Below are positions 3,803-43,497 of a DNA stretch of 64,000 bases, one piece after another. Within the stretch, counting starts at the first letter, position 1, and each line of letters opens with the position of its first letter. The translations under genes and the position numbers were made by a program. The stretch is from an uncultured Alphaproteobacteria bacterium (lineage in GTDB: Bacteria > Pseudomonadota > Alphaproteobacteria > Rs-D84 > CACZYB01): the NCBI GenBank assembly GCA_944390685.1, contig CALXQL010000006.1, positions 24,108-88,107 on the forward strand, written 5' to 3'. A model generated the notes under the pieces. It did not search any database. It had not been told where the DNA came from and worked only from the letters and a program-made list of their open reading frames with translations.

Positions 3803-5574
3803 ATGAAGTTATCAAAAATAAGAATAAAGAATTTTCGTGGTCACATTGATACAACTGTAAATATATCAAATTTAAATGTTATAATAGGACCAAATGATAT
3901 TGGAAAATCATCAATAATAGATGCTTTTGATATATATTTTAATGATTATCCAATAGATATTTCAGATGTAAACGTATTTATACCAGAAAATACGCCCAAA
4001 ATTGTTGAAATTTCTTGTTCTTTTATTGTTGATAAAAATGAGGCAGTTACACTAGACGCTAGTGAAAATACAGCAACATCTTTAGCTTCAGAATACTTAT
4101 TAAATAAAGATGGATTTCTTGAAATCTGTAAAAAATATGATTTTAGTACAAATAAAATAAAAAAAAGTATTCAGATTATAACAAAACACCCATCTAATTT
4201 TACACCTGCATTAATATTACAAAAAATAAACGATTTAAAAAAATTAGCTTCTGATAATAATATTACCCCAACTAATAATAATATAAAAAAAGACATAAGA
4301 AAAGCGATTTTTGAACAATATCCTAACTTAAATTGGGATAATGAATTTACTATTGAAGTAGAAGCAAAGGAAAACGATATTACACAAATTTTTAATAAAT
4401 TCAAAGACGATTTTCCAACATATATGGTTTTTCGTGCAGATAGAACAAATACAGATAAAGATAAAGATAAAGAAGTTAGTGAAACCACAAATGCAATTAC
4501 AAAAAGTGTTGTATCAGAACTAGAAAACGAATTTAATAATATAAAAAATAAAATAACAGATCAAATAAATACTTTAGCACAAAAAACACTCGAAAAACTA
4601 AAATTATTCGATGAAAATATATCAAATAGTTTAAAATCAAATATACAAACAAAACAACTATCCTCTTTATTTTCATTTACATTTGATTGTGATAATGGAA
4701 TTTCATTTAATAAAAGAGGAAGTGGTGTAAAAAGATTAATGTTATTAAGTTTTTTTCTTGCTGATGCAGAACAAAAAAATACAAACAAAACATTATATAC
4801 GCAATAGAAGAACCTGAAACATCACAACATCCAGATTATCAAATAATGTTAATAAATTCTTTAAAAGATTTATCAGATAAAAATAACAGACAAATAATAA
4901 TCACTACACATACTCCAGAAATAGTAAAAATTGTAAAAAAAGAAAATCTAATCTTTTTAAATAAAGATAGATCAAATATACTAAAGATACAACAAAATGA
5001 AACTTTAGAAATCAAAAAAATTGTTGATAATTTAGGAATTCTACCATATGTATCTTATAAAGAGGTAATATTTGTAGAAGGAAAAACTGATATAAGTTTT
5101 CTTAAAAATTTAAATCAATTTCAAGACTGTAAGAATATAATTGATATAACGCAATTTTCAATTATAGAATTAAATGGTTGTGCTAATGTTGATACATGGA
5201 TAAAAAATGACTATTTAGAAAATTCAAATATTAAACGTTTATATTTTCGAGATAGGAATAATAATAAAATAGAAACGGAAAATCAAAAAAACAATGTTAT
5301 AATAACAAAAAAAAGAGAAATAGAAAATTATATACCATATAATTTAATTGAAAACTACTTCAATATTGCTTTCACAAAAACAGAAAAAGAAAATTGGAAT
5401 GATATAGATGTTACTAAACATATACGAGGTAAAATAAATAACAAATACAAAAATGAAGATATAAAAAGAATATTAGAATCTCGAGATATATGGAATAATT
5501 TAAAATTACCAGATGATAGTATGAATGAAATAAAAGAATGGTTTAATAAAATAAAAAACTATTTTGATGACTAA
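3803..5574 (+). pseudogene. OLD-family ATP-dependent endonuclease (ABC-type ATPase plus C-terminal Toprim; class-1 OLD or fused PARIS AriAB-like), interrupted by a +1/-1 frameshift in an A7 tract
   Basis: N-terminus MKLSKIRIKNFRGHIDTTVNISNLNVIIGPNDIGKSSIIDAF is the OLD/AAA_15 Walker A. The ABC signature-like KRGSGVKRLMLLSFFLA lies before the break. Part 1 runs 3803..4807 in frame 2 and ends TLYTQ*. A different frame (frame 1) is open from 4765 after an in-frame TGA (4762-4764) and reads IIYAIEEPETSQHPDYQIM...QIIITTHTPE (Walker B and H-loop) up to the ATG at 4846 where the ORF track starts the second ORF. The second part also carries VIFVEGKTDISFLKNL, a Toprim motif. The reading frames swap at acaaaaaaatacaaacaaaa (4771..4790). 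Confidence 0.7.
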
Positions 5575-24853: not shown

Positions 24854-27793
24854 TTGAATATGAAACTATCTAATATATTAAGTAATATTGAATACTCTTC
24901 TATAAATTTTAATGATATTGATATAAAAGGTGTAGAAAATAACTCATCTAAAATTAAAGACGGGTATATTTTTCTTGCCATTAAAGGAAATAATTTTAAT
25001 GGTGTAGATTTCATCCAAAATGCAATAGATAATGGTGCTGTTGCTATAATCGTTGAAAAATCAAATTCTTTAAATACTGATTTATATCCAAATACTACAA
25101 TCATTTTTGTTGATAATATAAGGATTGTGGAATTCAAACTTGCAAGTATCTTTTACCCAAATAATATAAAATCTATTGTTGCAGTAACGGGAACCAATGG
25201 TAAAAGTTCGGTCGTAAATTTCGTAAGACAAATGTGGACTTTCCTTAATATAAAATCAGCTTCAATTGGAACTTTGGGTGTGCAAACGGAAAATAATGTA
25301 GGGGGAAAATCTTTAACCACACCAGATGCAATTGAACTTCATAAGCATTTACAAAAACTTGATAATGATGGTATTACAAATGTTGCATTAGAAACTTCTT
25401 CTCATGGCATATCTCAACATAGAGTAGATGGAATTAAAATAACAGCTGCTGCATTCACCAATATTTCAAATGACCATCTTGATTATCATAAAACCATTGA
25501 TGAATATTTTAATGCTAAATTAAGATTATTTTCTCAATTGCTTGATAAAGATGGTGTTGCAGTTATCAATATTGATGATGGATATGGGCTTAAAGTAGTT
25601 GATGTATGTAAAAATAGAGGTATTAAAGTCATAGCCTATGGTAAAAATGATAATGCTGATATAAAATTTATTGATTATAAGATAGAAGATGATTTCCAAA
25701 AGGTGAAAATTTCAGTATTTGGTGAAGAATTTAATCTCACTCTTAATCTTATTACCGAATTCCAAGTATACAATCTGCTTTGTGCTTTGGGCTTATTTAT
25801 GGCATCTGTTGATGATTGGAAAAAAATTCTTCCTTTTTTAAGTTCCATTAAAAATGAAAAAGGTAGAATTGAATATGTTGCTACTACACCAAATGGGGCA
25901 AAAATTTATGTGGATTTTGGCCATAATGGTGATGGACTTAAAAAAGTATTAACTCAATTCAGACCTTATGTAAAACAAAATCTTATTTGTATTGCTGGAT
26001 GTAGTGGCAATAGACCTGAAATTCGCAGAATTGAAATGGGACAAGTTTTAAATCAATATGCAGATAAAGTCGTCATAGTTGATGATAATCCTAGAAATGA
26101 AGATCCAAAAGTCATTAGGGATACTTTATTCAAATATTGCCCAAAAGCTATGGTCATACCTGATAGGTATAAGGCTATTGAAGAAGTAATTGATACTTCA
26201 AGAGTTTGGGATAGCATTATAATTTGTGGAACTTTATTTGAAAAAGATAAGGAATTCATTAGGGAAAAATTAAAACCTCAAATGCGAAAACTTGATGAAT
26301 TATTACATGATGCAAATATCAATATTACAAATGTTCCAAGTATTCCTATATATAATGTATCTTCTGATTCCAATAATATAATTGATGGTAGTATTTTTGT
26401 TGGAATTAAAGGATTTAATCTTGATGGGGCTAATTTCTCATTTGATGCAATAAATAAAGGGGCAAAAGTTATTGTAGTTGCAAAAAACTATAATTTTGAT
26501 GATAAAACTCTTAATTTAATTGATGAAAAAAATGTAATTGTTATAAAAGTGGATAATACAAGAAAAGCTTTTGATGATTTGATGTTTGCCTTTTATAATA
26601 AAACTCAACCTGATACAATTGTCGCTGTAACAGGAAGTAGTGGTAAGTCTTCTGTTGTTGATTTTTGTCGTCAAATTTGGGGCTTGATGAAGCTTCCTGC
26701 AATAAGTTCTGGAACCATTGGAATTATTGCTGAAAATGTTTATTCAAAAAAAGAAATCATTAAATACAATGATGCTGATTATACCACACCTGGAAATGGT
26801 GAAGCATATAAAATGTTTAAATATTTTAAAGAAAAAGGTGTAAATTATGCTGCAATTGAACTTTCATCTCATGGTCTTGATCAACTTCGCATGAATAATC
26901 TTAAAATATCTTCCGCCGGATTTACAAATCTTGGCACTGATCATATGGATTTTTATGGCGGTGCAGAAAAGTATTTGGAATCTAAATCTAAATTATTTAA
27001 GGAAAATTTGGATATAAATGGAACTGCTGTTTTAAATGCTGATATTGATGAATATTCATATTTAAAAAATATTTGTGATGAAAGAGGGGTTAAATCCATA
27101 TCTTATGGTAAAAATGGTAAAGAACTAAAAATCATCTCGCAAGAAGTTTCTTTAAGCGGTCAAAAAGTGGAAATTGAACTTTTCGGTAAAAGGTATAAGT
27201 ATGATTTAAAAATTTTAGGTTCTTTCCAACTTTATAATCTTCTTTGTGCCATTGGTTTGGTCGCATCTTCCACAAATAATTGGCAAAATGTATTACCTAT
27301 GCTTGATAATGTAAGAAATGCTATGGGTAGATTGGAATATATGGGCAAAACAAAAAAAGGTGCCTTCATTTATATTGATTTTGCTTATAAAGGTGATGCT
27401 TTATTCAATACATTAAAAACTCTTCGTTCCATGAGTGATAAAAAAATTATATGTGTATTTTCTACTTGTGGTGATGTATATGAAACTCGTAGAAGACAAG
27501 AATTAGGACAAGCAGCTCAAGAACTTTCCGATATTGCTATATTAACTGATGATAGCCCTAGAAATGAAGATCCTCAAAAAATAAGAAATGAAGTATTGGC
27601 TTATTGTCCAAAAGCAATTGAAATAAAAACTGGTAGAAAAGATGCTATTCGTAAAGCTTTTGAATTAGCAGGTTGTGATGATATCATTTTGATTGCTGGA
27701 AAAGGTCATGAAGATTATATCACTATTAAAGATAAAAACATACCTTATACAGATCAAAATTCTGTTATAGAATTATTAAAAGAAGAGATTTAA
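24854..27793 (+). CDS. murE: Tandem fusion of two complete MurE-type UDP-MurNAc-tripeptide ligase modules (979 aa)
   Basis: Module 1 (about aa 1-475) has VTGTNGKSS, TTPDA, ETSSHGISQHR, FTNISNDHLDYH, DFGHNGD and DDNPRNED. Module 2 (about aa 478-979) has VTGSSGKSS, TTPGN, ELSSHGLDQLR, FTNLGTDHMDFY, DFAYKGD, DDSPRNED and AGKGHEDY. Both N-termini align (MKLSNIL... and MRKLDELL...). The MurF-specific features (NxNNxIG, DDSYNAN) are absent from both. Confidence 0.8.
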   Translation: MNMKLSNILSNIEYSSINFNDIDIKGVENNSSKIKDGYIFLAIKGNNFNGVDFIQNAIDNGAVAIIVEKSNSLNTDLYPNTTIIFVDNIRIVEFKLASIFYPNNIKSIVAVTGTNGKSSVVNFVRQMWTFLNIKSASIGTLGVQTENNVGGKSLTTPDAIELHKHLQKLDNDGITNVALETSSHGISQHRVDGIKITAAAFTNISNDHLDYHKTIDEYFNAKLRLFSQLLDKDGVAVINIDDGYGLKVVDVCKNRGIKVIAYGKNDNADIKFIDYKIEDDFQKVKISVFGEEFNLTLNLITEFQVYNLLCALGLFMASVDDWKKILPFLSSIKNEKGRIEYVATTPNGAKIYVDFGHNGDGLKKVLTQFRPYVKQNLICIAGCSGNRPEIRRIEMGQVLNQYADKVVIVDDNPRNEDPKVIRDTLFKYCPKAMVIPDRYKAIEEVIDTSRVWDSIIICGTLFEKDKEFIREKLKPQMRKLDELLHDANINITNVPSIPIYNVSSDSNNIIDGSIFVGIKGFNLDGANFSFDAINKGAKVIVVAKNYNFDDKTLNLIDEKNVIVIKVDNTRKAFDDLMFAFYNKTQPDTIVAVTGSSGKSSVVDFCRQIWGLMKLPAISSGTIGIIAENVYSKKEIIKYNDADYTTPGNGEAYKMFKYFKEKGVNYAAIELSSHGLDQLRMNNLKISSAGFTNLGTDHMDFYGGAEKYLESKSKLFKENLDINGTAVLNADIDEYSYLKNICDERGVKSISYGKNGKELKIISQEVSLSGQKVEIELFGKRYKYDLKILGSFQLYNLLCAIGLVASSTNNWQNVLPMLDNVRNAMGRLEYMGKTKKGAFIYIDFAYKGDALFNTLKTLRSMSDKKIICVFSTCGDVYETRRRQELGQAAQELSDIAILTDDSPRNEDPQKIRNEVLAYCPKAIEIKTGRKDAIRKAFELAGCDDIILIAGKGHEDYITIKDKNIPYTDQNSVIELLKEEI

Positions 27794-38926: not shown

Positions 38927-40090
38927 ATGAAAATAAAAAACTTAATTGCTTTATTATCTGTAATAGTATTGGGGGCTTGTTCTTCTTCAAATACCCTTTT
39001 AGGTGATGAAGGTAAGGCACAAACTGCTCAACCTAAACAATCTTCTGGTTTTGATGGAAATTTCGTGAAAAATAAAATCTCAAATTTCAAATCTGAACAA
39101 GAACAAATGAAACAAATGATTGATTCTAGAAAAGTGGCTCTTCAACAAATGAGAAATGACACAAATAATGCCGTTTCTGATTATAGAACTACTCTCGCTC
39201 AAATCAATTCTAAATTACAACTTGGAACAACTCCTGGAAATCCAGAATTGATGGATCAATGGAAAGATGCAAGAGCAAAACTTGAAAAAGTAAATGACAT
39301 TGCTTTTGATATTAAACGTCTTGTCGCAGATGTAGAATCTGATCAATCCATGGTTGATTATATGGTTGGTTCAATCCAAGCTTCTTATAAAATTCGTGGT
39401 GCAACAGAAGATGATCACAAACAATTAAAAGCTTTGGAAGAACAAGCTAAACAAATTGGTTCAAGTATTTCTGTATTTGCTCGTCAATTAAATCAAGAAT
39501 CTGAAAGACAACAAGCTTATGTTGATAGAGAAAAATTTAACTTGAATGATGTTGCTCTTAATATTAAAAATGGAAAACTTTATGGTTTTGGTGGTTCTTC
39601 TGATTATTTTGCAGATGGCGGTTCAATGTTTTCAAGTGATGAATCTTTTGAAGCTTTCATTGAAGAAACAAACCAAGATTATGGCAATATGCAAAGAAGA
39701 TCTTCTTCCCGCATGAATAATCGTAGAGGAAATTTAGTTGAAGATAATTCTCTTCGTGCAATGTCATCTAAATCAACTCCTGTTCAAAGATTTGATGCAA
39801 ATGTTGTAAAGTCTAATAGACCTTTAATTGTAATCAAATTTGATTCTGCTTCTGTTGATTTTGAAGAACCTCTTTATCAATCTTTAAGTCGTGCATTAGA
39901 AAGAAATCCTTCCGCAACATTTGAAATTGCTGGTGTTGCTCCTCAAGGAAAATCAAATGCATCTATTAAAACAAATGTTAAAAATGTTATGAATTCATTA
40001 ACTGAAATGGGTCTTCCTGCATCAAGAGTTGCTTTGACCATGCAAACTGATGATGTAATGTTTGATGAAGTTCGTGTTTATGAAAAATAA
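38927..40090 (+). CDS. Lipoprotein with a C-terminal OmpA-like domain (possible Pal-like peptidoglycan-associated protein)
   Basis: Lipobox LGAC, coiled-coil middle, and C-terminal FEIAGVAPQGKSNASIKTNVKNVMNSLTEMGLPASRV, which resembles the OmpA_C pattern. Confidence 0.45.
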   Translation: MKIKNLIALLSVIVLGACSSSNTLLGDEGKAQTAQPKQSSGFDGNFVKNKISNFKSEQEQMKQMIDSRKVALQQMRNDTNNAVSDYRTTLAQINSKLQLGTTPGNPELMDQWKDARAKLEKVNDIAFDIKRLVADVESDQSMVDYMVGSIQASYKIRGATEDDHKQLKALEEQAKQIGSSISVFARQLNQESERQQAYVDREKFNLNDVALNIKNGKLYGFGGSSDYFADGGSMFSSDESFEAFIEETNQDYGNMQRRSSSRMNNRRGNLVEDNSLRAMSSKSTPVQRFDANVVKSNRPLIVIKFDSASVDFEEPLYQSLSRALERNPSATFEIAGVAPQGKSNASIKTNVKNVMNSLTEMGLPASRVALTMQTDDVMFDEVRVYEK

Positions 40091-40468
40091 TATTTTATAA
40101 TATGAATTTGAACTCCCTTTTTTAAGGGAGTTTTTTATTTTTCAATTTACTTTCTTTAAATTATTTGTTATATTTTTTATTAGATATGATTTTTTCATAT
40201 TTAGTATCAGAGATGATACGGAGCTTAACAACTCTTTTATACATCAACGGTGAAGTAGCATCGTTATGTTGCTATTTTTTTTATACCCTTTTGGGTTTTA
40301 ATGGCAACTCTATTTAGCCCCAATCCTTTGCGGTTGGGGAGTCGTAGGAATATAATAGAAGTATATTTTTATAAAATATGCTTTAAATACTACGAGATCA
40401 TTGTTGATGTGTGATTTGTTAACTGCCCGGCCATATCTGATATGCAGGTTAATAAAAAGGGGGTAGTT

Positions 40469-40855
40469 ATGAAAAAGATACTTTTTACTTTTATATTCAT
40501 TTTTTATAATAGTGTTGTATTTTCCGCCACAACAGTGCAATTGGAATCTGTGCTTCAAAAATATGGCGTGCCAAAGGCAAGTGATTGCGGAACAATCAAT
40601 GAGGCTCATTATAATGGATCAGATCCAGAATGCCAAGAATGGGGTATGTTTTATGATACACAAAATCGTAGATGTGATTATTGTGAAATTGGTTATGCGA
40701 CAGATAGTAAAACCGATACAGAATGTAAACCTATAGTTTGTCCCGCAGGTTTCGGTGGTGTCATTATTCGTGATGGATTATGTCCCGCAGGTTATGGATT
40801 GTTTCAAATTACAGGTGGCAATTGTCCAGCCGGAACTATTTTAACTAAAACTTAG
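40469..40855 (+). CDS. Secreted Cys-rich protein (CxxC...CPAG repeats)
   Basis: Signal peptide MKKILFTFIFIFYNSVVFSA. 13 Cys, including CPAGFGG, CPAGYG and CPAGTI. Start moved to the Met at 40469, which has an aaggggg RBS. Confidence 0.55.
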   Translation: MKKILFTFIFIFYNSVVFSATTVQLESVLQKYGVPKASDCGTINEAHYNGSDPECQEWGMFYDTQNRRCDYCEIGYATDSKTDTECKPIVCPAGFGGVIIRDGLCPAGYGLFQITGGNCPAGTILTKT

Positions 40856-40948
40856 AAAAAATTTATGGGGAAAGTCATATTGTCCGATTACCTTCACTTT
40901 CCCCTCCCTATTTTACATTATGTGAACGAACAAAGAAAGGAGAAAAAT

Positions 40949-41734
40949 ATGAAATTAAATAAAAAACTGCTCATGCTTGGGTTGGGGATTACAGCCTCAA
41001 CGGGAGCATTAGCACAAACATTTTATCAATGTTTGCCGTGTACTGCTGGAACTTATTCCAGTAGTGGTAAGTGTATTAATTGTCCGGCTGGAAAATATCA
41101 AAATTTAACAGGGCAATTAAGTTGTAAGGCATGTCCGGCGGGAAGTTATTGTCCGGCGGGAAGTGTTGAACCGAAACCTTGTTTACCAGGACAATATCAA
41201 GATGCAACAGGGCAAGGAAGTTGTAAATCATGTCCGGCTGGACAAGTATCAAATAGTGGAGCAACATTTTGTAGGACATTTGGAAGTGGTGGAACATTGA
41301 TAGGAGTAAGTGGAGGAAGAGGAACATTGGCACCAGGAGCATATAGAGTTGAACTTTCTGGTGGTAAAGGTGGAAAAGGACAAGATAATTGGTGTTATGC
41401 AACAAATTGTAATGGTTGTTATGGTGGAAATGGTTATACAAATTCAAAAGTATTTGTAGTTACAAAAGATACAAATTATACATATTCTATTGGAAGTATT
41501 GGAGCAAATGGAAGTGGGGGACCTAGTAGTTGTAATAATAGAACACAAACACCAGGTAAACAAGGCGGAACAACCACATTTACACTTAGTGGAGTATTTA
41601 GTATATCCGCCCAAGGAGGACCTGGTGGACCAGGAGGTAGAACAGTTAATTTAGGTTGTGGTGGTGGATGTTCAAATGCTGTAGGTGGTAATGGTAGTAA
41701 TGGCAATGGTTGGCTTAAAATTTATAAAATGTAG
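40949..41734 (+). CDS. Secreted protein with eukaryote-like Cys-rich repeats (GCC2/GCC3- or TNFR/furin-like CxxCPAGxY) and a C-terminal glycine-rich domain
   Basis: Signal peptide MKLNKKLLMLGLGITASTGALAQ. Repeats CLPCTAGTYSSSGKCINCPAGKYQ, CKACPAGSYCPAGS and CKSCPAGQVS. Then GAYRVELSGGKGGKG...GGNGYTN...GGPGGPGG, which resembles the Gly-rich domain family. Start moved to the Met at 40949. Confidence 0.6.
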   Translation: MKLNKKLLMLGLGITASTGALAQTFYQCLPCTAGTYSSSGKCINCPAGKYQNLTGQLSCKACPAGSYCPAGSVEPKPCLPGQYQDATGQGSCKSCPAGQVSNSGATFCRTFGSGGTLIGVSGGRGTLAPGAYRVELSGGKGGKGQDNWCYATNCNGCYGGNGYTNSKVFVVTKDTNYTYSIGSIGANGSGGPSSCNNRTQTPGKQGGTTTFTLSGVFSISAQGGPGGPGGRTVNLGCGGGCSNAVGGNGSNGNGWLKIYKM

Positions 41735-41742
41735 TTTTAAAA

Positions 41743-41770
41743 AAATCCCCCTATAAAAAGGGGGATTTAA
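41743..41770. terminator. Bidirectional terminator between the Gly-rich protein gene and rpsA
   Basis: atccccc-tataaaaa-gggggat hairpin flanked by A-run and T-run. Confidence 0.55.
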
Positions 41771-41784
41771 AATTCAAAATCAAT

Positions 41785-43497
41785 TTATTTTTTTGATTTC
41801 TTTTCTTTTTCTTCAAGGCTTGCACCAAGAATATCGCCCAATAAAGCACCTGTATCGGTTGAGCCATATTCTTTCATTATCTTTTTTTCTTCATCAATTT
41901 CGTATGCCTTGATAGATAATGTTATTTGACGTGATTTCATATCAACATTTGTTATCTTTGCATCAACCTTTTCATCAACTGCAAAACGTTCTGGTTTTTG
42001 CTCTGATTTTGTTTTGGAAAGATCATTTGTCTTTATGAAACCTGGAAGTCCGTTAACATCTACTACAATTCCATCTTCCTTGATTTCCTTTACAACACAT
42101 GTTACAACTTCACCTTTTTTAACTTTATCAAGAGAAGAAGCAACTCTATCTTCTTTTAATTGTTTAATACCAAGTGAAATTCTTTCCTTATCAGCATCAA
42201 TTTCAAGAATCTTTGTTTTTATTACCATTGATTTTTGGTAATCTTTTACAGCTTCTTCTGGATTTTTATCCCAATCAATGTCAGATAGGTGAACCATTCC
42301 ATCAAGATCATTTCCCAAACTTACAAAAATACCAAATTCTGTAATGTTTTTGATTTCTCCTTCAATTTCATCACCAACATTATGACTTTCTGCAAATTCT
42401 TTCCATGGATTTGGTGTACATTGTTTCAAGCCCAATGATATACGGCGTTTTTCTTTATCTATTTCAAGAACCATTACATCAACTTCACTTGATACTGATA
42501 AAAATTTTGATGGTTGTAAATTCTTTTTAGTCCAGCTTATTTCACTTACATGAACTAAACCTTCTATACCATCTTCTAAATCAATAAATGCACCGTAATC
42601 AGTTAAGTTTGTAACTATACCTTTATAAATTTTTCCAACTTCAAATTTATCAATATTTTGCCATGGGTCATTTTCAAGTTGTTTCATTCCCAATGATACA
42701 CGGCTTGTTTCAGGATCAAAGTTTATAACTTTCACTTTGATTTTTTGACCTATTGTAAATAATTCGTTTGGATTTGATACTCTTTTCCATGAAATATCAG
42801 TGATGTGAAGAAGTCCATCAACTCCTCCTAAATCAATGAATACTCCATAATCTGTGATATTTTTTATAATACCTTCCATTGTATCACCGATTTTAATGTT
42901 TTTGATGATTTCATCTCTTTTTTCCGCTCTATCACCTTCTAAAATAGCTCTATGTGATACTATCAAATTTGAGCGAAGTTTATCCATCTTTATTATTTTA
43001 AATTCCATTGGTTTATTCATTATAGAGTTCATATCCTTTATTGGATTCATATCCAATTGTGATGATGGCATAAATGCCAATACTCCGTTTAAATCAACGG
43101 TATAACCACCACGAACTCTTTCAATGATTTCACCTGTGATAGTTTTATTATCTGCTACTTGTTGTTCTAATTCTTTCCATACTTCTTCTTTTCTTGCTTT
43201 TTCACGAGAAGCAACAAGAGTGCCATCAAAACCTTCATATCTTTCAACATATACATCAACTATATCGCCAACTTTTATGTCATCATTTCTAAATTCTTTT
43301 TTTTCAATATGTCCTTCTGATTTTAGGCCTACATTAACAATAACATAGTCATTTCTTATATCAACTATAGTTCCTTTTGTTACGTAACCTTCTAATTTAG
43401 AATCGGAAGAATACATTTGATTGAATAATTCGGCAAAATTTTCGCCAGTTGAAAATTGTTCTACATCAGGGGTAAAATGTGATTTATTTTTTTTCAT
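41785..43497 (-). CDS. rpsA: 30S ribosomal protein S1
   Basis: 570 aa with six S1 repeats (for example GDTMEGIIKNITDYGVFIDLGGVDGLLHITDISW). Confidence 0.9.
   Translation of the reverse strand: MKKNKSHFTPDVEQFSTGENFAELFNQMYSSDSKLEGYVTKGTIVDIRNDYVIVNVGLKSEGHIEKKEFRNDDIKVGDIVDVYVERYEGFDGTLVASREKARKEEVWKELEQQVADNKTITGEIIERVRGGYTVDLNGVLAFMPSSQLDMNPIKDMNSIMNKPMEFKIIKMDKLRSNLIVSHRAILEGDRAEKRDEIIKNIKIGDTMEGIIKNITDYGVFIDLGGVDGLLHITDISWKRVSNPNELFTIGQKIKVKVINFDPETSRVSLGMKQLENDPWQNIDKFEVGKIYKGIVTNLTDYGAFIDLEDGIEGLVHVSEISWTKKNLQPSKFLSVSSEVDVMVLEIDKEKRRISLGLKQCTPNPWKEFAESHNVGDEIEGEIKNITEFGIFVSLGNDLDGMVHLSDIDWDKNPEEAVKDYQKSMVIKTKILEIDADKERISLGIKQLKEDRVASSLDKVKKGEVVTCVVKEIKEDGIVVDVNGLPGFIKTNDLSKTKSEQKPERFAVDEKVDAKITNVDMKSRQITLSIKAYEIDEEKKIMKEYGSTDTGALLGDILGASLEEKEKKSKK

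Follow-up and report, generated by a model that had tools for sequence, protein, structure and literature searches.

Within a stretch of 64,000 nt from an uncultured Alphaproteobacteria bacterium (GenBank assembly GCA_944390685.1, contig CALXQL010000006.1, positions 24,108 to 88,107 of the forward strand; the window in the following), we analyzed two adjacent open reading frames (ORF1 and ORF2) together with the region upstream of them. We lean towards reading them as one expression unit that begins with a promoter and a structured leader RNA (about 290 nt), continues with ORF1, a spacer hairpin and ORF2, and ends with a terminator; it would be one copy of a multicopy cassette for exported, variable binding proteins. 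From our comparisons, the most likely function is that of a variable secreted (adhesin-like) binding module under a new cis-regulatory RNA; it is fold analogies and the evolutionary pattern that suggest the binding module.

The leader RNA

The stop codon of the upstream gene (40090) and the likely ORF1 start are separated by a gap of 378 nt, which at paralogous loci is conserved about as well as coding sequence. It had been proposed from an unusually long leader with a GC hairpin that this region is regulatory. Our data support this more strongly than proposed, i.e., the hairpin is one helix of a larger conserved RNA structure. This leader spans 40181..40468 of the plus strand (5' end putative) and was compared in seven sequence versions, namely those of the window, of L018/L003, L020a/L001a, L020b/L001b, L004 and L015, and of L013, which is found on an unrelated JGI contig (L and P numbers denote loci and proteins, respectively). 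A partial copy is present in L014. All seven versions share one architecture, i.e., from 5' to 3' the hairpins P1 and P2, a long-range helix (PLR) closing a junction of P3, an optional P3a, P4 and P5/P6, followed by a pyrimidine-rich segment and the Shine-Dalgarno (SD) sequence. In all complete copies, the leader is located directly upstream of the ORF1 start.

In the window, all leader helices are on the plus strand. P1 (40204-40209 / 40214-40219) is capped by a GAGA loop of GNRA type and directly followed by P2 (40220-40223 / 40232-40235). PLR pairs 40241-40252 with 40399-40410 and encloses P3 (40256-40260 / 40270-40274, then a U-run) as well as P4 (40318-40323 / 40334-40339). The latter is the hairpin CCCCAATCCTTTGCGGTTGGGG (40318-40339, arms CCCCAA/UUGGGG) noted in the original prediction. 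P5 (40342-40347 / 40390-40395) encloses the nested P6 (40363-40369 / 40373-40379). In the minimum free energy (MFE) fold of the window copy, the anti-SD segment AACUGCCC (40421-40428) is predicted to pair with the SD sequence GGGUAGUU (40461-40468), such that the latter is occluded.

The structure is supported by covariation. In the model-derived leader alignment, 91% of the cells are paired and eight pairs are changed on both sides, and the observed covariation score is reached by none of 500 shuffles (0/500). Sliding the partners by 1-3 columns reduces the pairing to 30-54%. P5 shows compensatory changes at 6/7 pairs, distributed over four versions. PLR and P1-P3 were scored on hand-registered segments, as the MAFFT alignment was wrong in the 5' part of the leader. 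Here, strands pair better with their own partner than with the partner of a foreign version, i.e., 6.7/7 vs. 4.3/7 pairs for PLR, 6/6 vs. 3.7/6 for P5 and 5/5 vs. 1.8/5 for P3. PLR occurs in seven different sequences, each of them complementary. The G-U pairs of P1, P2 and PLR are workable on the sense strand only. Furthermore, the MFE folds of five copies show z-scores of -3.5 to -5.7, and each of them recovers PLR, P3, P4 and P5/P6.

Among the loci compared here, a covariance model of the 3' domain (R1) detects 11 copies at E<=3e-14, with a single site in the window. Scanning metagenomes with the P1 motif resulted in five loci, among which L013 and L014 are real while L010-L012 are coincidental matches inside coding sequence. 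None of the 4227 families of Rfam 15 matches the leader, and the window-wide scan at gathering cut-offs found three tRNAs only. A permissive Rfam scan of 40050-40520 reached at best 27.7 bits compared to the 65 required, and this match is the terminator of the upstream gene. In the viral contigs searched, the core motif around P4 is absent.

Two copies depart from the common arrangement. At L013:1422-1680 (minus strand, JGI contig AUXO018505510.1), a divergent leader precedes an unrelated protein of >474 aa, which has a signal-peptide-like N-terminus and no Pfam domain. The copy adjoins a dUTPase-like gene, identified by reading its translation. Because the L013 copy precedes an unrelated protein, the leader RNA is not simply a passenger of the cassette. 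At L016:2950-3000, a single P1-like hairpin (GUAUC-AUUUUU-GAUAC) directly before the SD sequence of an ORF1-type gene is all that is present of the leader, which argues that the latter is dispensable or was lost in some copies.

Two elements within the region were considered and rejected. A 50-aa ORF at 40165-40317 was discarded as leader peptide, given that the substitutions preserve base pairs and not codons. A TATAAT box at 40354-40359 was discarded as ORF1 promoter, since it is located inside the covarying P5 and is not conserved in L013 or L015.

The leader probably controls translation, and we infer that it acts in cis as a switch. Two alternative pairings are predicted, which would be mutually exclusive with the helices above, i.e., what a switch would need. 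In the first, a conserved CUGAUAY segment further downstream offers an alternative partner to the 5' arm of P1, with a covarying version of this pairing in L015; in the second, a local hairpin P7 would form, whose loop consists of the 3' strand of PLR. Within the proposed mechanism, the anti-SD segment would sequester the ribosome-binding site of ORF1, and the choice between P1 and the CUGAUAY pairing as well as between PLR and the local hairpin would open or close this site upon a signal.

Export signals and cysteine repeats

ORF1 (40469..40855, plus strand, 128 aa) and ORF2 both follow a purine-rich SD sequence at their likely starts, 40469 and 40949, respectively, and the homologous proteins begin at these same residues. 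The N-termini are MKKILFTFIFIFYNSVVFS followed by ATT for ORF1 and MKLNKKLLMLGLGITASTGALA followed by QTF for ORF2. Longer frames from 40442 (ORF1) and 40865 (ORF2) are gene-caller alternatives and not the preferred starts.

The export signals ascribed to both proteins were confirmed by eye, i.e., each N-terminus combines a basic n-region with a hydrophobic core and an AxA-like site, such that residues 1-19 of ORF1 and 1-22 of ORF2 resemble Sec-type signal peptides. The latter (40949..41014, plus strand) is near-invariant in the paralogue alignment. Likewise, C-x2-C...CPAG units are found in both proteins, as proposed. The mature ORF1 protein holds eight cysteines and three CPAG units. In the stalk of ORF2 (residues 23-109; 41015..41275, plus strand; delimited by the Pfam match and the cysteine positions), there are 11 regularly spaced cysteines (28, 31, 42, 45, 59, 62, 68, 78, 92, 95, 108) and four CPAG units.

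The assignment of these repeats to GCC2_GCC3- or TNFR-like families holds for ORF2 and fails for ORF1. ORF2 matches the Pfam family Ephrin_rec_like (PF07699, formerly GCC2_GCC3) in three stretches with 49.7 bits (E 3.2e-13), which is far above chance given the cut-off of 23.1. Matches of ORF2 to NCD3G, ELAPOR1-TNFR-like and TNFR_c6 are below threshold; the cut-off of 29.4 bits for the TNFR cysteine-rich domain (PF00020) is not reached. ORF1 scores 15.6 bits with Ephrin_rec_like, i.e., below 23.1, and none of the cysteine-repeat models passed. NCBIfam provides no match for ORF1, and the best for ORF2 is at chance level (12.6 bits vs. 100).

The ORF1 family is small, with 10 clusters among 5.8 billion at 59-100% identity. 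ORF1 is thus a conserved, lineage-restricted, exported cysteine-rich protein, as read from its sequence, and it adjoins an ORF2-type gene wherever it could be placed on contigs. Its role may be that of a partner or co-factor of ORF2, possibly as a TNFR-type module binding the TNF-like head described in the following.

The glycine-rich head of ORF2

The C-terminal part of ORF2 (residues 110-261; with stop codon 41276..41734, plus strand) contains 27% glycine. In the AlphaFold2 (AF2) model, which is of moderate overall confidence, the core strands reach a pLDDT (predicted local distance difference test) of 85-94, while the glycine-rich loops (residues 148-153, 191-197 and 232-250) stay below 50. 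On the level of the fold, this model shows a TNF-like beta-sandwich with glycine-rich insertions. A Foldseek search against viral models (BFVD) yields 67 matches at E<=1e-3 (best 2e-7), mostly phage proteins annotated as 'glycine-rich domain-containing' or as minor tail proteins. For the phage Pam3, a TNF-like plus glycine-rich module is described as receptor-binding tip, and its likeness to the ALK ectodomain has been noted (PMC9608196).

The original prediction had related the head to the glycine-rich-domain family and to ALK/LTK ectodomains. This likeness stands on the level of the fold and in transitive profile searches, whereas both Pfam glycine-rich models stay below threshold. Gly_rich_2 (PF21722) scores 9.6 bits on the window head (cut-off 24.3, E 1.1), and ALK_LTK_GRD (PF12810) shows no match at E<=10, neither for the isolated head nor for the whole ORF2. 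When a profile of the head was searched against 1.84 billion representatives, 82 proteins only were found. We scanned 60 of these, of which 12 carry PF21722 and 4 carry PF12810. The distant relatives P0009, P0093, P0105 and P0116 pass the Gly_rich_2 cut-off. A profile from which Gly_rich_2 members were excluded aligns (hhalign) with the Gly_rich_2 domain of P0009 over 55 columns with a probability of 78% (E 1.8e-5). This indicates remote homology of the window head to Gly_rich_2, below threshold membership. Searched against the sequences of the PDB, a profile of the head domain gave a chance match only. In longer paralogues, the heads hold runs of six to eight glycines (G6-G8).

In summary, ORF2 starts with a Sec-type N-terminus, continues with a putatively disulfide-rich stalk of Ephrin-receptor-like / TNFR-like repeats and ends in a TNF-like sandwich head with glycine-rich loops.

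A multicopy, recombining cassette

Pairs of ORF1-like and ORF2-like genes are found at L001, L003, L004, L015, L016, L017, L018 and L020, in each case surrounded by housekeeping genes. In all cases with a known place on a contig, the ORF1-type gene is directly upstream of the ORF2-type gene. The neighbours are TopA-YebC for L003, L017 and L018, RecR/RuvB for L004, RNase III/MgsA for L001 and L020, LpxD-FabZ/GGDEF for L015, and a Glycos_transf_N (PF04413) glycosyltransferase and SurA for L016. A single metagenome assembly (ERZ16268197) holds at least four cassette loci, as do the samples that contain the window sequence. Contigs from several independent assemblies (L006, L007, L008, L005, L002 and L009) end in or beside a cassette, which is consistent with assemblies breaking where a sequence is repeated and recombines.

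The paralogues are mosaics. Compared in blocks of 30 residues, P0012 is identical to ORF2 in the first block (30/30) and then in 8-16/30 positions per block, while P0002 shows 25-30/30 over residues 31-180 and 11-14/30 afterwards (about 45% in the glycine-rich loops). Window and L004 share a DNA tract of 93% identity that reaches from mid-ORF1 into ORF2. The ORF2-type paralogue at L015:3476-4201 has the signal peptide and stalk of the family but a different, Cys/Trp/Tyr-rich C-terminal domain, i.e., its head is swapped. As the compared sequences stand, paralogues thus keep signal peptide and stalk and vary in the head, from the glycine-rich loops up to a wholly different head.

Some copies are incomplete. 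A complete leader is present at L001:9539-10000 and L020:2320-2781, but no more than the initial ORF1-type codons (MKKILTFIFI...) are seen between it and the ORF2-type gene, P0005 and P0003, respectively; here, ORF1 appears to be deleted while the leader was kept. The ORF1-type gene at L004:5509-5620 has an intact start and signal peptide, and its frame shifts at a short A-run (CAAAATATGG vs. CAAAAATATGG in intact copies). This shift explains the aberrant N-terminus of P0083 in the gene call; it could reflect a pseudogene, slippage or an assembly error.

Origin of the cassette

The original prediction expected eukaryotic best hits and took the cassette for horizontally acquired or host-mimicking. 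We find instead that close relatives are encoded on bacterial-type contigs, that third-position GC is native and that the best fold matches are phage tail proteins. Among 68 ORF2 homologues, the only one labelled eukaryotic (a fungus) is the weakest (E 8e-4). Full-length ORF2 relatives are located on contigs with bacterial housekeeping genes; P0009, the closest protein of the same architecture, is on a prokaryote-type contig; and other repeat matches carry bacterial type IX secretion system (T9SS) sorting domains. The GC content at third codon positions (GC3) is 0.21 for ORF1 and 0.14 for ORF2, with neighbouring genes at 0.13-0.17. Given these contigs, the native GC3 and the weakness of the sole eukaryotic match, a recent transfer of the cassette from a eukaryote is not supported. 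The Ephrin_rec_like repeats themselves are described in the literature as being of ancient eukaryotic origin (PMC6993872). The explanation by a common bacterial family, which had been named as the counter-argument to a host-derived origin, hence holds by half, i.e., essentially every homologue is bacterial, whereas the repeats belong to a Pfam family of described eukaryotic origin and not to a common bacterial one.

That the bacterium is host-associated turned out to be an assumption. The window (25-33% GC, in a lineage of about 28%) encodes ordinary functions, i.e., FtsH, TilS, IF3, S1, AsmA, MlaA, TolB, PGI, Mur ligases, fatty-acid synthesis and tRNA synthetases, and none of its genes is a host-association marker. 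Related contigs show alphaproteobacterial markers, e.g., a Mitofilin-domain protein and LpxI. Relatives of the window's RpsA are labelled only 'MAG: Alphaproteobacteria bacterium' or 'bacterium'. When GTDB species-representative genomes were scanned with the ORF1 and ORF2 alignments, no relative of either was found.

Flanking and intergenic elements

ORF1 and ORF2 are both encoded on the plus strand between a lipoprotein gene (38927-40090) and the convergent rpsA (41785-43497). A terminator scan identified the predicted intrinsic terminator of the lipoprotein gene at 40110..40133 (plus strand), where a T-run follows a stem of 10 bp; this site bounds the expression unit on its 5' side. Downstream of it, a consensus scan places a promoter-like site at 40146..40174 (plus strand), i.e., TTTACT-N17-TATATT with an upstream TG (extended -10 TGTTATATT, 40166-40174); sequence comparison finds its TGnTATATT block kept at paralogous loci. 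At the other end, a terminator hairpin is located between ORF2 and rpsA (41747..41763). The terminator scan scored it on the minus strand, and it may double as ORF2 terminator because an A-run precedes it.

Between ORF1 and ORF2, a spacer hairpin is formed by the complementary arms GGGGAAAGU and ACUUUCCCC around a 20-nt loop (40867..40904, plus strand). Hairpins at the same place in other cassettes have different arms that are still complementary, e.g., GAGGAAAAGU/ACUUUUCCUC and GGGAGGAAGU/GCUUCCUCCC. Besides the window copy, such spacer hairpins are found at L003:4623-4756, L015:3385-3478, L016:3400-3520, L001:9842-10003 and 11403-11536, and L009:262-363. Their 5' arm is rich in purines and their loop measures about 20 nt, and some loci hold tandem pairs. 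An AUG just 5' of the hairpin arm opens a short frame. In the window, this frame is in frame with ORF2; it stops before the downstream start in L015, and in L001 (upstream of P0005) its stop overlaps the start.

Concerning other genes, the product of the upstream gene (38927-40090) has 387 aa, a lipoprotein-type signal (LGAC) and a coiled-coil-like N-terminal half, and Pfam, NCBIfam and PADLOC gave no significant match for it. Further away, a 979-aa ORF (24854-27793) contains the Mur ligase domains N, M and C twice each, which suggests a fused MurE-MurF-type enzyme, and an ORF for an AAA_15 / AAA_23 ATPase is found at 3803-4807, near the window start in a stretch of about 25% GC.

Discussion

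We propose that an alphaproteobacterial lineage keeps the cassette at four or more chromosomal loci per genome, where it would be reshuffled by recombination. The ORF2-type protein would be an exported adhesin-like or receptor-like binder whose variable head sets the target specificity or the antigenic type, and recombination among paralogues would diversify the specificity or antigenicity of the heads.

Several observations weigh against this proposal or parts of it. With respect to the leader, the predicted anti-SD:SD helix counts 8 bp for the window copy, 6 bp for L013 and no more than 3-5 bp elsewhere, and the U-run after P3, present in five of the seven versions, could mean that transcription frequently stops inside the leader. 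The leader alignment is made of seven versions only, several being paralogues from few genomes; the helix table is partly hand-curated and the model-derived alignment leans towards structure. With respect to the proteins, the export signals rest on reading by eye, and a Sec signal in a diderm guarantees a periplasmic location only, such that surface exposure is an inference; no secretion-system gene or anchor is linked to the cassette. The window ORF2 scores below the Pfam thresholds of both glycine-rich families, the structure model of ORF1 is poor, and the TNFR-like matches of ORF1 are weak.

The strongest competitor, which we still deem unlikely, concerns the upstream region. It might provide control sites on the level of DNA, as a promoter equipped with palindromic operators, or encode a separate small RNA that ends at the U-run of P3 and is followed by the ORF1 promoter. 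In most copies, P3 with its 7-8 U indeed resembles an intrinsic terminator, a TTGCGG is located inside the P4 palindrome 17 nt upstream of the TATAAT box (40354-40359), and P4 itself is a perfect 6-N10-6 palindrome, i.e., of the kind bound by dimeric regulators. PLR, however, joins a segment upstream of the U-run to one about 150 nt downstream and does so in seven versions that are always complementary, while L013 and L015 have no U-run and keep the remaining structure. P5 spans the TATAAT box and covaries at 6/7 pairs, with the box not kept in L013 or L015, and the G-U pairs of P1, P2 and PLR function on the sense strand only.

Other competing explanations concern the origin and function of the proteins. 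We consider it improbable that a eukaryotic host (protist or arthropod) donated the genes and that these serve a host-associated bacterium as host-mimicking effectors or adhesins. The cysteine repeats that inspired this idea are embedded in a family that appears old, multicopy and diversifying, with native GC3; the sole eukaryote-labelled match is the weakest of 68 (the fungus at E 8e-4), full-length relatives and P0009 are found on prokaryote-type contigs and other repeat matches with T9SS sorting domains, the best fold matches are phage proteins, and the window shows no host-association marker. These phage matches could themselves point to domesticated phage receptor-binding proteins (tail-fibre tips) or to a tailocin or prophage remnant. 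We judge this to be just as improbable, since Sec-type signal peptides and a cysteine-rich stalk are both foreign to phage fibres, none of the eight loci examined has a phage gene beside it but housekeeping neighbours, no PHROG match was found, and viral contigs were searched for the leader core motif without a match. The head domain may have passed from a phage to a cell long ago, which would be compatible with the exported binding cassette that we favour. Finally, a conserved N-terminus with a variable or swapped C-terminus, in a two-gene unit of multiple copies, is reminiscent of a polymorphic toxin or bacteriocin-type system in which a toxic head varies and a partner protects. This is very improbable, given that neither a toxin domain nor a PADLOC or Pfam toxin match was detected and that the small gene is located upstream, encodes an exported protein and is conserved at 61-77% identity while the heads vary, i.e., the opposite of a cognate immunity gene. 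Each of these four alternatives is less consistent with the data than the multicopy cassette for exported, variable binders.

A bolder version of the favoured reading is conceivable, and we put it forward tentatively. The leader could represent a new riboswitch-like class, i.e., a PLR-closed multi-way junction with an SD-sequestering platform, that switches on variable exported binders, with ORF1 (similar to a TNFR cysteine-rich domain) and the TNF-like head forming a bacterial pair of receptor-ligand type. If true, modules known elsewhere from phage tail tips and animal receptor ectodomains would here be combined into a surface recognition system that is regulated and antigenically variable. 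If, on the other hand, the proteins are ordinary periplasmic ones and the leader is merely a stabilizing 5' untranslated region, the finding amounts to no more than a gene family specific to this lineage.

By fold, the protein domains fall into known families. What is new is that they are combined in a multicopy bacterial cassette which has its own partner gene and, above all, an uncatalogued structured leader. As exchangeable head of a Sec-exported multicopy bacterial family, the TNF-like / glycine-rich fold gains a cellular context that can be used to trace it between phages, bacteria and eukaryotes. ORF1 adds a tiny unannotated family that accompanies ORF2-type genes. As to the leader, it is a large RNA that covariation supports well and that lacks a counterpart in Rfam; genes of exported proteins form an unusual regulon for it if it is riboswitch-like.

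Comparison with known systems

On the RNA level, the closest analogues are SD-sequestering riboswitches, with which the window leader shares a conserved multi-helix 5' structure, a pyrimidine-rich, putative anti-SD segment and mutually exclusive (predicted) pairings. In contrast to known riboswitches, it has no Rfam match and precedes genes of exported proteins instead of metabolic enzymes or transporters, and these genes point to no candidate ligand. When compared to polymorphic toxin-immunity systems, the heads vary likewise, but the small gene of the cassette is located upstream, its product is exported and conserved, and no toxin domain was found.

For the proteins, tail-fibre or tail-tip proteins of phages, i.e., gp24 of cyanophage Pam3 (PDB 7ypx) and gp33 of mycobacteriophage Bxb1 (PDB 9d93), show a TNF-like plus glycine-rich distal domain as found in ORF2. 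In ORF2, a signal peptide with a cysteine-repeat stalk takes the place of their alpha-helical baseplate-docking domain, and ORF2 comes without phage neighbours, PHROG match or fibre chaperone gene. The glycine-rich domain (GRD) of ALK/LTK (PF12810; PDB 7lrz, 7nx3, 7lir, 7ls0) is a ligand-binding domain of the same fold class as the ORF2 head. Compared to the ALK GRD, this head is about half the size and has no PF12810 match, and ORF2 lacks a kinase, a transmembrane segment and a known cytokine ligand; the polyglycine-II lattice is not resolved in the ORF2 model. The C-x2-C...CPAG-x-Y units of eukaryotic Ephrin_rec_like / TNFR repeats are also present in ORF2 residues 23-109. In contrast to the eukaryotic proteins, the context and the nearest relatives of ORF2 are bacterial, and ORF1 is below the model cut-off.

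Gly_rich_2 (PF21722) proteins are known from bacteria and phages and include the metagenomic proteins P0009 and P0093, which have the same architecture as ORF2, i.e., a signal peptide, cysteine repeats (Ephrin_rec_like) and a glycine-rich head, and which share the motif TLxxGxYxxxLxGGxGG with the ORF2 family. The window family differs from them by its own conserved C-terminal strand (W/A-x-L/I-Y-K), its dedicated ORF1 partner and its dedicated leader RNA.

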